This document shows positions 28,179-31,141 of a DNA stretch of 64,000 nucleotides, one piece after another. The position numbers and the translations under genes were made by a program. A model generated the notes under the pieces. That model was not told the origin of the DNA. It made no database searches and saw only the letters and a list, made by a program, of their open reading frames with translations. Within the stretch, counting starts at the first letter, position 1; every line of letters begins with the position of its first letter. This DNA comes from Planctomycetota bacterium (lineage in GTDB: Bacteria > Planctomycetota > Planctomycetia > Pirellulales > Lacipirellulaceae), in the NCBI GenBank assembly GCA_039190745.1, contig JBCCXZ010000002.1, positions 32,001 to 96,000 on the forward strand. The letters run 5' to 3'.

Positions 28179-28511
28179 TCACTCTTGGCGGACTTGCTCG
28201 CTCAACCAAGCCAAGTATGCAGGGCTGCCGCCTTGGACCTCCAAGACGACTGCCTCAGGGCAGTCGTAGCTGTGCAATCGCCCGATCGCCTCGACAACCT
28301 TGTCAGCCATCGCCGCACTTGTCTTGATGGCCAGGAAAAACTCGTCGGCCCGCTCGACCGCGCCCTGCCAACAGTACACGCTTTGGCCGGGCGTCACCTG
28401 CACGCAGGCCGCCAATCGTTCCTCGACTAGAGAAGTTGCGATCGTGTCGGCCTCGGCCCGCGACCCCGTAGAAGTCTGAACCACCACGTACGCGCTCCCG
28501 TTGGTACTCAC
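28179..28511 (-). CDS. cutA: Divalent-cation tolerance protein CutA
   Basis: LVEERLAACVQ, SVYCWQG, IKT, HSYDCPE and YLAWL motifs. Confidence 0.93.
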   Translation of the reverse strand: MSTNGSAYVVVQTSTGSRAEADTIATSLVEERLAACVQVTPGQSVYCWQGAVERADEFFLAIKTSAAMADKVVEAIGRLHSYDCPEAVVLEVQGGSPAYLAWLSEQVRQE

Positions 28512-29740
28512 TGCAGGACCTCTCGCTCGGGAGCATTCTCGTGATCGCCGGCGCCCTCTGATTCAGTCGCCGCCCCATAAAACTCGCGCGCCACAACTTC
28601 GGCGTGCCAGGGCAGCCGGCTGCGGAGCGTGTAGACCCAGTGGCCGCGCATGCTGGGCATCAATCCCCCGCGGTAGTGGCGGTAGTCGACCAGCAGCGTC
28701 TTGCCCTGTTCCGCGACTTTCTTGCCGGCCCGCAATCTCGAGAGGAGCCATCCGGGGCCGAGGTCCTGCTCGAAAAACCGACGGAGCCGCCAGTCGGCGA
28801 CAAACGTCCGGCCGCCGATGAGCAGCGGCGGGAAGTCGGAGCCGGCAATCCCGACCTGCTGCACGGAATCGCGATCCGTGAAGAAAGCCTTCGTCAGCAG
28901 GCCCCGACCGTAGTCCGACGTGTAGGCAGGCAATCCTACCCTGGGCCTGTGATTGACGAAGTGCAGGAGCTTTGCGTAACCGTCCGCCGCCCACGCATGG
29001 CGAATCGGCGCCCCGAAGGAGACCATGTCTAGCTGGAGTCTTCGGACCGGGTGGCTTTCGTTTTGCAGGATTGACTCCGCTTCCTCCCAGTGCGGCGTGT
29101 CGCGGCGGGCCCCCCACCACGAGCGTCGATGGTCGCGGGCCGCGTGGAGCAACGCTTGCAACTGCTCGTTGTCGCTAGCCAAGAGCCAGGACAACAGCGC
29201 CAAGACGTTCCCGCCATGGCTGTGCCCCCAGAGTTGCACCCGCAGCACCGCCTCCAGCTTTTCGGGCGGCAAAGACCCTGCGAAACATGCGAGTTCGTTG
29301 AGTAAACGAATCGCGCCGTCGGCACGGGCGATGTGGTTGTTCTGGCCAGACCAGACAAACCGTTTGACGGAGATCTTCTCCTCGGTGGCTTGATTGATCC
29401 CGCTTTCGAACTCATCGGCAAAACGGGGCACATAGTTCCCGCCTTCGCCCGTGAGCACATCGGTGATCGTCTTTCGGGCGCGCCCGAGCCGCCCTGCGAG
29501 TCCTGGCGCCAAGCGGTCGAGGCCCATGATGACACCAGCAAGATCGTTCCCCACAAAAGTGCCATGCACTAAGTAGACGGCCGCCACCCCAGCTGATGCG
29601 AAGGCGGCACCCGAGGAGGCAAGCCTCTTACGAAACTCGATTTGCTTGGGCGTTACTGGCTGAGGTTCGTCGAAGACTTCGAACGGCGCCGACGGCGGCC
29701 CGTTCGTGTAAACCTGGTGGCGGAACCCGGACAATGCCAT
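28508..29740 (-). CDS. Putative alpha/beta hydrolase
   Basis: VYLVHGTF oxyanion-like motif, WSGQN, and nucleophile elbow WGHSHGGN. Confidence 0.7.
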   Translation of the reverse strand: MALSGFRHQVYTNGPPSAPFEVFDEPQPVTPKQIEFRKRLASSGAAFASAGVAAVYLVHGTFVGNDLAGVIMGLDRLAPGLAGRLGRARKTITDVLTGEGGNYVPRFADEFESGINQATEEKISVKRFVWSGQNNHIARADGAIRLLNELACFAGSLPPEKLEAVLRVQLWGHSHGGNVLALLSWLLASDNEQLQALLHAARDHRRSWWGARRDTPHWEEAESILQNESHPVRRLQLDMVSFGAPIRHAWAADGYAKLLHFVNHRPRVGLPAYTSDYGRGLLTKAFFTDRDSVQQVGIAGSDFPPLLIGGRTFVADWRLRRFFEQDLGPGWLLSRLRAGKKVAEQGKTLLVDYRHYRGGLMPSMRGHWVYTLRSRLPWHAEVVAREFYGAATESEGAGDHENAPEREVLQ

Positions 29741-29810: not shown

Positions 29811-29852
29811 AAGAAAAAAGCCGCCCGCGATCCAAAGGACCAGGGGCGGCTT
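29811..29852 (-). terminator. Rho-independent terminator after the small-peptide genes
   Basis: AAGCCGCCC...GGGCGGCTT stem followed by a T-tract on the minus strand. Confidence 0.7.
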
Positions 29853-29880
29853 GCTCAAGTATTCTAAGCGGGATTCGTTT

Positions 29881-30126
29881 CTAGAAGCCGATGTAGATCG
29901 ACGGGCCGTGGACGACCGGCGCCGGCGTGTACAGCACAGGGCTGTAGTACACCGGGCGGCGGACGACCCGACGGGCCACGGGGTACGGAGGCAGTACCGC
30001 CCGCGCCGCGACACGACGAACCGGAGCGATCGGACGACGGACAAAGTAGCCTGCGTCGGCGCTCTGGGCTCCAGCGAACGAGAAACCACCAAGGACGGTC
30101 AAAGCGAACAGGGCTTTCTTAAACAT
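29881..30126 (-). CDS. Small secreted Arg/Pro/Val/Tyr-rich peptide (81 aa)
   Basis: AGGAG SD; Sec signal ending SADA; mature part has no acidic residues; ends GPSIYIGF. Confidence 0.85.
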   Translation of the reverse strand: MFKKALFALTVLGGFSFAGAQSADAGYFVRRPIAPVRRVAARAVLPPYPVARRVVRRPVYYSPVLYTPAPVVHGPSIYIGF

Positions 30127-30221
30127 GATTCTTACTCCTCTGAGGGTTGGTGGGCTGCTCAGCCCGACTCGTTGGTTTGGTTGGCTTTGCCGAGTACTTT
30201 GCTCGACAAGAGACTACTAAC

Positions 30222-30238
30222 GCACCGCCTATGCCAAA
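30222..30238 (-). promoter_or_regulatory. Sigma54-type -24/-12 promoter for the 81-aa peptide gene
   Basis: Minus strand reads TTTGGCATAGGCGGTGC (GG-N10-GC). Confidence 0.65.
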
Positions 30239-30252
30239 CCATGTCCTTGATT

Positions 30253-30281
30253 TGTAAATCATTAATAATAAAAGACTTACA
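30253..30281. promoter_or_regulatory. AT-rich inverted repeat / IHF-like site
   Basis: TGTAAATC-N13-GACTTACA; each half is one mismatch from WATCAANNNNTTR. Confidence 0.55.
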
Positions 30282-30362
30282 GAATCGATTGGCTAAAGCA
30301 GCCCAACCCATTGTGACATCGAAAGTGCGACATCATTCCCTCGTTGAGCAGATCAATTCGAC

Positions 30363-30632
30363 TCAGAAACCCACTGAGAAGCTAATCCCGCCCCTGCCGT
30401 AGTGCCCGGGATAGCCGCGGTAGTACCTCGTCGGCGGCCCATAGTACCGACCAGGGTAATAGGCACGACGCGGCGGGCCGTAGTAGGCGACCGGCGCGCG
30501 ATACGGCCCGTAACCCCCGTAGCCGCCATACCCACCGTATCCGCCTCGATAGCAGTAGCCGGCGTCTGCCGAACTGGCGGCCAACGCGGCCCCGCTTGCT
30601 AAGACCAAAATCAATAGAATTTTACGCAACAT
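30363..30632 (-). CDS. Small secreted Tyr/Gly/Arg/Pro-rich peptide (89 aa)
   Basis: GGAGG SD; MLRKILLILVLASGAALAASSADA signal; GGY repeats; ends GGISFSVGF. Confidence 0.85.
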   Translation of the reverse strand: MLRKILLILVLASGAALAASSADAGYCYRGGYGGYGGYGGYGPYRAPVAYYGPPRRAYYPGRYYGPPTRYYRGYPGHYGRGGISFSVGF

Positions 30633-30705
30633 TTGGTTGCCTCCGTCAAGCTGCCTGCCTGTACGGGGAAGGACACCAAACCCCGTCGCCCGAAGTGGCA
30701 AAGCA

Positions 30706-30721
30706 GGCATAGGAACTGCCG
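30706..30721 (-). promoter_or_regulatory. Candidate sigma54 promoter for the 89-aa peptide gene
   Basis: Minus strand reads CGGCAGTTCCTATGCC (GG-N10-GC). Confidence 0.45.
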
Positions 30722-30878
30722 CGGAATATCTGGGCAGCCGCCGTGCCGGAAGCTCTACATTTACAATAAAGCTTTATTAGACATGGCTTTATGCAATGCC
30801 ACCGGTCCGGCCAGCGATGGCCGAAGGAAGTCGGTCTGAGCACAAATTGCCATCCGACTCGCTACGCTTGCTGTCTTG

Positions 30879-30894
30879 TGGCACATCAATTGCA
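30879..30894 (+). promoter_or_regulatory. Consensus sigma54 promoter
   Basis: TGGCACATCAATTGCA matches TGGCAC-N5-TTGCA exactly. Confidence 0.7.
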
Positions 30895-31141
30895 CCATTA
30901 ATGAATCGTTGACGCCAACCGGCCAGCCTTGGAACAGCGGGGCCGGGACAGAGAAGAGAGTGCCTACGGGGTCGGCAGAAGAAGAGGCAGTAGAGTAGAC
31001 CGTCGCTAGTTGCTGATTTTTTAGTGTTTTGTGTCCCTGTGGAGGCACGGAACGTTCAGCGATCAAGCAAAGCGGGTCGTCAGGGCAAAGGCGAGTCCGA
31101 AGGCAGGTAAAACTGCTTTCGGGCTCGCCTGTTTTGTTCCA

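Follow-up and report, generated by a model that had tools for sequence, protein, structure and literature searches.

Genes A and B lie next to each other on the reverse strand of a 64,000-nucleotide stretch of planctomycete DNA (the window), in a 3.9-Mb, 65% GC assembly of the family Lacipirellulaceae (Planctomycetota), among neighbours that carry the planctomycete domains DUF1549/DUF1553 and DUF1501 (Pfam). The initial annotation described them as tandem, sigma54-driven genes for small secreted proteins, which raises the questions of whether they form a conserved system, how it is controlled and what its products do. The elementary parts of that description held on inspection. Both co-oriented reading frames (89 and 81 aa) are where they had been placed; a recount confirmed mature parts of 65 (A) and 56 (B) residues with zero Asp or Glu, and middles that differ in the manner described (17 Tyr in A; 9 Arg and 10 Pro in B); the tails GGISFSVGF (A) and GPSIYIGF (B) can be read in the sequence; an SD sequence and a GG-N10-GC element (30734-30748 and 30222-30236) precede each gene; and the proposed terminator behind the pair corresponds to a GC-rich hairpin with a U-run, which is absent from the output of a simple terminator scan. 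The signal-cleavage context SADA/GY is indeed shared by the two proteins, but it has no special status: it is a signal-peptidase site of the usual AxA kind, and homologs differ in it. The features of the locus are as follows, with signal peptides called from sequence pattern (basic start, hydrophobic helix, AxA) and the bit scores of the gene A and B boxes taken from a matrix built without the host genus.

30363-30632, minus strand: gene A, 89 aa
30561-30632, minus strand: predicted signal peptide of gene A
30552-30554, minus strand: Cys codon of gene A
30366-30392, minus strand: putative C-terminal amphipathic strand of gene A, downstream of a Gly/Tyr/Arg-rich body
30734-30748, minus strand: sigma54 -24/-12 box of gene A, 11.1 bits
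30767-30791, minus strand: dyad core of the gene A promoter, putatively IHF-like, 17 nt upstream of the sigma54 box
29881-30126, minus strand: gene B, 81 aa
30052-30126, minus strand: predicted signal peptide of gene B
29968-30039, minus strand: conserved Arg/Val/Pro core of gene B, residues 30-53
29884-29907, minus strand: tail of gene B with aromatic last residue
30222-30236, minus strand: sigma54 -24/-12 box of gene B, 15.3 bits
30255-30279, minus strand: dyad core of the gene B promoter, 17 nt upstream of the sigma54 box; the top-scoring copy in the genome, 34 bits
29811-29852, minus strand: GC-rich, intrinsic-terminator-like hairpin and U-run after gene B
30879-30893, plus strand: perfect sigma54 box toward the DUF1549/DUF1553 and DUF1501 genes

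Since the last of these boxes is oriented opposite to those of genes A and B, the intergenic region appears to be a divergent promoter region. DUF1549/DUF1553 and DUF1501 genes also lie upstream of A-type genes in several genera. A long intergenic inverted repeat (18 pairs) is found at 31089-31130 of the window, 5' of the DUF1549 gene.

Two gene families and their conserved parts

A search with the single sequence of gene A found one relative. Synteny was more productive: an A-type gene lies near gene B in 18 of 23 B loci, co-oriented and upstream in 17 (one cut by a contig end) and divergent in one. We gathered 26 distinct A proteins through synteny and composition, and not through the tail. 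They consist of two conserved ends and, between them, a low-complexity Gly/Tyr/Arg/His middle of variable length, with an overall composition of 31% Gly, 22% Tyr, 9% Arg and 1% Asp plus Glu, and almost no Lys. At the N-terminal end, a Cys just past the cleavage site is present in 24 of the 26; it does not form a lipobox, as it stands a few residues after the AxA site in varying contexts, preceded by Tyr, His, Arg, Thr or Gly. At the other end, the tail follows the consensus [SG]-G-[VI]-[ST]-[FL]-S-[IF]-G-F, found in full in 24 of the 26 A proteins and in 6 of 2,678 background proteins. A profile of A matched 51 of 251 genomes of the class, including a few spurious low-complexity matches; those at L121, L126 and L127 were rejected because no such ORF exists there. 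The same profile recovered 64 proteins from a collection clustered at 90% identity and 284 clusters at 50%. An aromatic residue ends 63 of 63 homologs from the former and 118 of 124 in the wider set, counts that are partly circular because these homologs were found with the profile. In the same wider set, the Cys is present in 71 of 124 proteins, and in 3 of 124, distant matches, the strand is internal rather than terminal. At least one genus without B has two A-type genes in a tandem arrangement.

Gene B has 140 homologs at E values up to 0.001, of which the 120 matches listed besides the query were examined. The homologs among these matches have in common the core consensus RRVAPVRRVAARAVLPPYPVARR, the conservation of which is partly built in because a word-seeded search favours the core. 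B proteins are rich in Val (21%), Pro (16%), Tyr (13%) and Arg (12%), with 0.2% Asp plus Glu and almost no Lys; there is no Cys between the core and the end. The nearest related locus (L005) comes from a Lacipirellulaceae MAG of the same genus, in which protein B is 89% identical. Between the two B genes we counted 42 synonymous and 9 non-synonymous codon changes, and mismatches concentrate at third codon positions across 26 A and 42 B genes; judged from these codon changes, gene B is under purifying selection. Tandem copies of two or three genes occur, mostly each with its own promoter box.

The two families differ in range. Matches to the A profile were found in 95 of 120 Lacipirellulaceae genomes, and B in 49 of the 120 (6 of 24 genera), including that of the cultured relative Adhaeretor mobilis. 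B was absent from all 300 other genomes searched, a phylum sample that holds no other member of the Lacipirellulaceae, and within carrier genera nearly every genome has the genes (26 of 27 and 13 of 14). All counts of A and B proteins, boxes and dyads come from kin and overstate independence. The homologs of both proteins are labelled 'hypothetical' or 'uncharacterized' by their sources without exception, in agreement with the earlier view of the pair as a candidate for an undescribed system. Pfam and NCBIfam likewise held no family for A or B, and PDB sequence searches returned 0 matches; member by member, Pfam gave low-complexity matches only, the best being PF10917 (4 of 26 A proteins, E 0.0003). 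Judged by this conservation, genes A and B are a cassette with no named family and with a well-supported, predicted sigma54 promoter architecture. The conserved Cys of A, the core motif of B and the upstream dyad, as candidate functional elements, are new beyond the earlier description. The result is two unnamed families with a precise promoter grammar and a set of candidate key residues: the terminal aromatic, the strand, the Cys and the PPYP core.

The initial annotation had proposed a genome-wide search for ORFs with the C-terminal motif. This search returned 11 ORFs, among which the only cationic, low-complexity, secreted products were A, B and one protein of 122 aa; a search by composition added one more B-like gene, of 75 aa. 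Two genes besides A and B for secreted Arg/Val/Pro/Tyr-rich proteins without acidic residues lie at L167:1656-1883 (-), which is G000:C48:15155-15382, and at G000:C22:33970-34338 (-); the 75-aa gene of these two has a weak B-profile match (E 0.03) and is divergent from groES.

Several features surround gene B in its relatives. A gene for a 410-aa protein lies downstream in 20 of 23 B loci; in the window (28508-29740, minus strand) its product has no Pfam match and contains a WGHSHGG motif, which we take to resemble an alpha/beta-hydrolase nucleophile elbow. In Adhaeretor mobilis, two genes for membrane proteins of 301 and 244 aa without a Pfam match (L015:4666-6271, plus strand) follow gene B; in most loci B and the 410-aa gene are separated by a similarly sized gap, which the window lacks. 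A 3' hairpin occurs 34-106 nt after the B stop codon in 14 of 42 B genes (L006, L008-L012, L014, L016-L018, L020, L025, L029 and L044; the locus of the window lacks it), with a conserved loop of consensus AGUGUGCGGG and a stem whose sequence varies while pairing is kept in most copies. Rfam gave 0 matches on five loci, four of them with this hairpin.

Promoter architecture

The earlier claim of a sigma54-type promoter at each gene is borne out by recurrence. A sigma54-type box is found 66-128 nt ahead of 25 of 26 A genes and 30 of 33 first B copies, compared with 1.3-1.7% expected by chance (158 of 11,800 shuffled sequences and 86 of 5,000 stretches drawn at random from the genome). Of 7.78 million positions in the genome, only 20 reach the score of the gene B box. 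For gene A, 130 positions do so; this box is therefore unremarkable alone, and the claim rests on its conservation. The genome encodes RpoN and has 13 matches to PF00158, 11 of them strong. Second B copies lacked a sigma54 box in all nine calls (0 of 9; loci with two B copies include L008, L010-L012, L015, L017, L032 and L044), suggesting that one copy may have another sigma factor.

Upstream of the boxes we found a 27-bp dyad with the consensus GTAAnTCnTTT-n5-AAAnGAnTTAC. Its reduced form YAA-N19-TTR occurs in 45 of 55 promoters, compared with 2.3 in shuffles and at most 6 with any other spacer; a scan of spacers from 14 to 23 gave a single peak at 19, with 0 of 55 at spacer 18. In 43 of the 45 the dyad ends 17-18 nt before the sigma54 box. 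Each half of the dyad resembles the E. coli IHF consensus, reported as WATCARxxxxTTR (PMC3897727), and the E. coli-type consensus itself is present, within one mismatch, in 11 of 55 promoters and in 4.8% of shuffles. The genome has one match to the HU/IHF family. These IHF-like half-sites, together with the single family match, suggest a homodimeric DNA-bending protein, and from this we infer that the dyad is a candidate binding site of that one protein. Such a site would provide a candidate binding motif for a planctomycete HU/IHF-family protein. Across the genome, 70 dyad sites score 15 bits or more, often between genes and most without a sigma54 box, as would be expected of an architectural protein. 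Some of these sites stand 17, 26-28 or 39-42 nt from sigma54-like boxes.

High-scoring combinations of dyad and box at the spacing of A and B occur at four places in the genome, namely at genes A and B, at an Hsp20 gene and at a membrane-protein gene that lies divergent from a gene for an enhancer-binding protein. The membrane-protein gene (L166:468-3089, minus strand) encodes an 873-aa multi-pass protein with no Pfam match, under the same layout of dyad and sigma54 box, and the enhancer-binding protein is encoded at L166:3257-4795 (plus strand). Hsp20 genes in family loci have a sigma54 box in 28 of 30 cases, and both box and dyad in 13 of 30. Hence, stress induction fits A and B as well as development does. 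A published survey reports that chaperones are enriched in the predicted planctomycete sigma54 regulon (PMC12316311). We also considered an activator shared between A/B and Hsp20. A T precedes the TGC in 22 of 30 Hsp20 boxes and in about 3% of A/B boxes; since the -12 elements differ in this way, a common activator is not supported.

The C-terminal tail and candidate functions

The initial annotation had likened both tails to the beta-signal of outer-membrane proteins, for which the prototype consensus is reported as LGLGYRF (PMC10629564). The A tail follows it in part, with a hydrophobic residue at -7 and at -5 in 26 of 26 proteins and a terminal Phe in 23 of 26. Other positions depart from it: Gly at -6 in 3 of 26, an aromatic at -3 in 9 of 26 (most have a non-aromatic hydrophobe) and Arg or Lys at -2 in 0 of 26, where Gly is found in 25 of 26. 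Some of the wider A homologs end in G-[IV]-R-F, and Arg occupies -2 in 10 of 46. The likeness is thus partial, covering the alternating strand and Phe of A and not position -2. It is weaker still for B, where among the 120 matches listed 98 have a hydrophobic residue at -3 and no more than 60 keep the -3/-5 register. The shared terminal Phe that had been described likewise applies to A and not to B: among the matches listed, 119 of 120 B proteins have an aromatic end, as Tyr (59), Trp (39) or Phe (21). B often extends past the strand, with YGW as the end in 19 of 120 listed matches, and the last three residues are very varied among these. An aromatic end combined with a hydrophobic residue at PDZ position -2, where the last residue counts as 0, is found in 24 of 26 A proteins and 97 of 120 listed B proteins, compared with 48 of 2,678 background proteins.

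The A tail resembles the last strand of BamA. In 29 of 29 loci of the Lacipirellulaceae this strand has the pattern F-[ST]-F-x-[VIL]-G, which the A tail, as [VI]-[ST]-[FL]-S-[IFV]-G-F, parallels column by column. An A-tail profile ranked the BamA strand of the host genome 8th among 1,149,842 heptamers and 1st among 16,068 near C-termini. In BamAs from across the class, the last strand was the best A-tail window in only 13 of 29, other barrel strands scoring alike. Nor did the A tail co-vary with the BamA strand of its own genome (2.88 compared with 2.73 identities, p = 0.11; 25 of the 26 genomes). By its residue pattern, the tail is an amphipathic strand of the outer-membrane type whose aromatic end is free, and it would be compatible with three uses: self-association, PDZ binding and pairing with BamA strand 1. 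AlphaFold2 models of the single chains have no globular fold (pTM 0.20 and 0.27) and contain only the signal helix and a short helix in B (residues 35-44); no strand appears at the tail of these 56-65-residue mature chains, and no multi-stranded barrel. These models are too poor to serve as a basis for a fold search.

We tentatively favour the explanation that A and B are inducible, self-associating structural peptides of the envelope, comparable to sulfur-globule coat proteins or chlamydial OmcA/B, although we consider it plausible rather than probable. An enhancer-binding protein, aided by an IHF/HU-type bender on the dyad, would fire the promoter of each monocistronic gene under stress or during differentiation. 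Following predicted Sec export, signal peptidase I would free disordered peptides of 55-70 residues in the periplasm, where the tail, alternating small and hydrophobic residues, could zip into a beta-sheet and partition to the interface of the outer membrane. Interchain disulfides could form through the single Cys of A, and Tyr/Arg contacts in A and the Arg-rich amphipathic core of B might bind each other and anionic envelope polymers, yielding a polymer coat that would reinforce the cell envelope upon induction. We favour a structural role because it is the only reading that covers the ends of A, the core of B, the near-exclusion of Asp, Glu and Lys, the tandem copies with separate promoters and the strands that are not terminal. 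The near-absence of acidic residues and Lys fits binding or assembly better than a three-residue signal would, and tandem genes, most with their own box, suggest an abundant product. The lack of a predicted globular fold, the sigma54-driven OmcA and OmcB of Chlamydia and, as a lead only, the sulfur-globule name of the cluster nearest to A (see below) also speak for this role. That the putative strand is not strictly terminal, given the B ends that run past it and the internal A strands, counts for the structural reading. The strongest point against a coat is the near-invariant free terminal aromatic, which a PDZ or BamA ligand would need and a self-assembling strand would not obviously. The tail strand missing from the single-chain models, the Cys missing from many of the wider A-type proteins and the unmatched sulfur globule profile (see below) also count against it.

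The terminal aromatic is accommodated more directly by signalling. Microproteins such as MucE and DimA are reported to act through such an end (PMC8545111, PMC3819740, bioRxiv 10.1101/2025.04.28.651061); by analogy, a free hydrophobic-x-aromatic end of A or B could bind the PDZ domain of an HtrA/DegS-type protease and trigger anti-sigma cleavage, connecting sigma54 with an ECF sigma factor. The best-kept features of the tail are PDZ positions 0 and -2, and the genome has 14 PDZ_2 matches, but the nine-residue strand register and Cys of A, the B core of about 23 residues and the near-exclusion of Asp, Glu and Lys would go unexplained, the last three residues of the listed B matches are very varied, and no PDZ protease or ECF/anti-sigma gene was identified among the neighbours when flanks were compared with eight window proteins. 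We consider this reading somewhat unlikely. Alternatively, the tail might pair with BamA strand 1 as a mimic of the beta-signal or strand 16, the peptides being one-strand oligomerising substrates or modulators of the lateral gate. The match between the A tail and the last BamA strand of the family and the G-[IV]-R-F ends near LGLGYRF (PMC10629564) argue for this, and beta-signal mimics are reported to bind BamA strand 1 (PMC13067283); the lack of co-variation, the equal scores of other barrel strands, the failure of canonical positions -6 and -2 in A and the -3/-5 register seen in only half of the listed B matches argue against it, and pairing of this kind is in our view unlikely. A narrower form, in which A would be a sigma54-inducible chromosomal copy of the last BamA strand on a disordered cationic scaffold, acting on the lateral gate of BAM as an endogenous ligand that throttles OMP assembly under stress or builds oligomers with one strand per subunit, seems distinctly unlikely. 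We know of no BAM substrate with one strand per subunit.

Two further readings place the peptides outside the cell. They could be extracellular adhesives of a holdfast, matrix or fibre, possibly modified to DOPA or dityrosine and made on attachment, and their Tyr/Gly/Arg composition is presumably similar to that of mussel foot proteins. Planctomycetes are reported to form a holdfast in the sessile stage (PMC2754498). Against this, a Sec signal is all that A and B show, with no visible means of crossing the outer membrane; none of the neighbours was recognised as encoding a modifying enzyme, and other families of the class have A-type genes too. We regard an adhesive as very unlikely. The initial annotation had offered cationic antimicrobial peptides as an alternative; these could be, for example, of the Pro/Arg-rich or BAM-inhibiting kind. 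Net charges of +8 (A) and +9 (B) would suit such peptides, and Pseudomonas Llps are reported to kill by beta-signal mimicry (bioRxiv 10.64898/2026.09.25.754295). However, the chromosomal position and synteny are fixed, the genes are near-universal in carrier genera, the core and tail are invariant rather than hypervariable, and no immunity or exporter gene could be recognised; this alternative is therefore disfavoured, and we judge it highly improbable.

If A and B are structural, the PVC superphylum would gain an envelope coat under sigma54 control, a parallel to OmcAB of Chlamydia; if they are ligands of BamA or of PDZ domains, they would represent a new layer of envelope control. Either would concern an envelope with unusual protein components, such as the Cys-rich YTV proteins, in bacteria with many small proteins that carry no annotation.

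Comparison with known systems

Within the literature searched on planctomycete sigma54, small secreted proteins and YTV proteomes, no title or abstract opening describes A or B, and supplementary tables (PMC12316311, PMC8567305, PMC2754498) could list homologs; the same holds for titles and abstract openings on the Rhodopirellula life cycle, Lacipirellulaceae fibres and planctomycete heat shock. Most subscription papers fall outside the scope of all these searches.

The nearest ESM Atlas cluster of A is auto-named 'putative sulfur globule protein' (0.90), which we treat as a lead only; others among the language-model neighbours of A and B are unnamed clusters. SgpA, SgpB and SgpC of Allochromatium vinosum are reported as small periplasmic structural proteins with a signal peptide that have been compared with keratins or the wall proteins of plants (PMC10386293). 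A and B are likewise small and carry a signal peptide, but differ in their sigma54 and dyad promoters, their conserved C-terminal strand and the Cys of A, and their locus shows no sulfur-globule context. The sulfur globule profile (PF17228) matched none of 26 A or 70 B proteins; a scan of the whole genome with it was uninformative, since the controls were silent too. The nearest clusters bearing a Pfam family were PXPV (PF12778) and WXXGXW (PF12779), at 0.75-0.80 and thus below the lead threshold. They share a signal peptide and a Pro/Tyr/Val/Arg-rich body with A and B; their HMMs matched 0 of 26 A and 0 of 70 B proteins at E values up to 1, and a literature search found no functional study of either family.

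MucE and DimA of Pseudomonas aeruginosa are envelope microproteins that act through a C-terminal aromatic-x-Phe end. MucE is reported to end in WVF, and DimA to have 92 aa, a predicted Sec signal, the end WTF and a low-confidence model (PMC8545111, PMC3819740, bioRxiv 10.1101/2025.04.28.651061); mucE is driven by AlgU and not by RpoN (PMC3819740). The tail of A and B is a longer, Gly-rich alternating strand, and their body is conserved and without acidic residues. With the BAM beta-signal and its mimics (darobactin and the C-terminal peptides of Llps), A shares a seven-residue alternating strand that ends in Phe. In contrast to these, A and B have no barrel body, lectin domain or modifying enzyme, carry Gly at -2 and are predicted to be exported into the periplasm of the producer itself.

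The remaining comparison is with envelope proteins of the PVC superphylum that are cross-linked through Cys. A has one Cys and B none, and there are no YTV repeats and no sequence match to either group. YTV proteins are described as Cys-rich cell-wall proteins of planctomycetes (PMC8567305, PMC12673574), and in Chlamydia sigma54 is reported to directly target omcAB, which encodes the Cys-rich, cross-linked envelope proteins OmcA and OmcB (PMC7482065).
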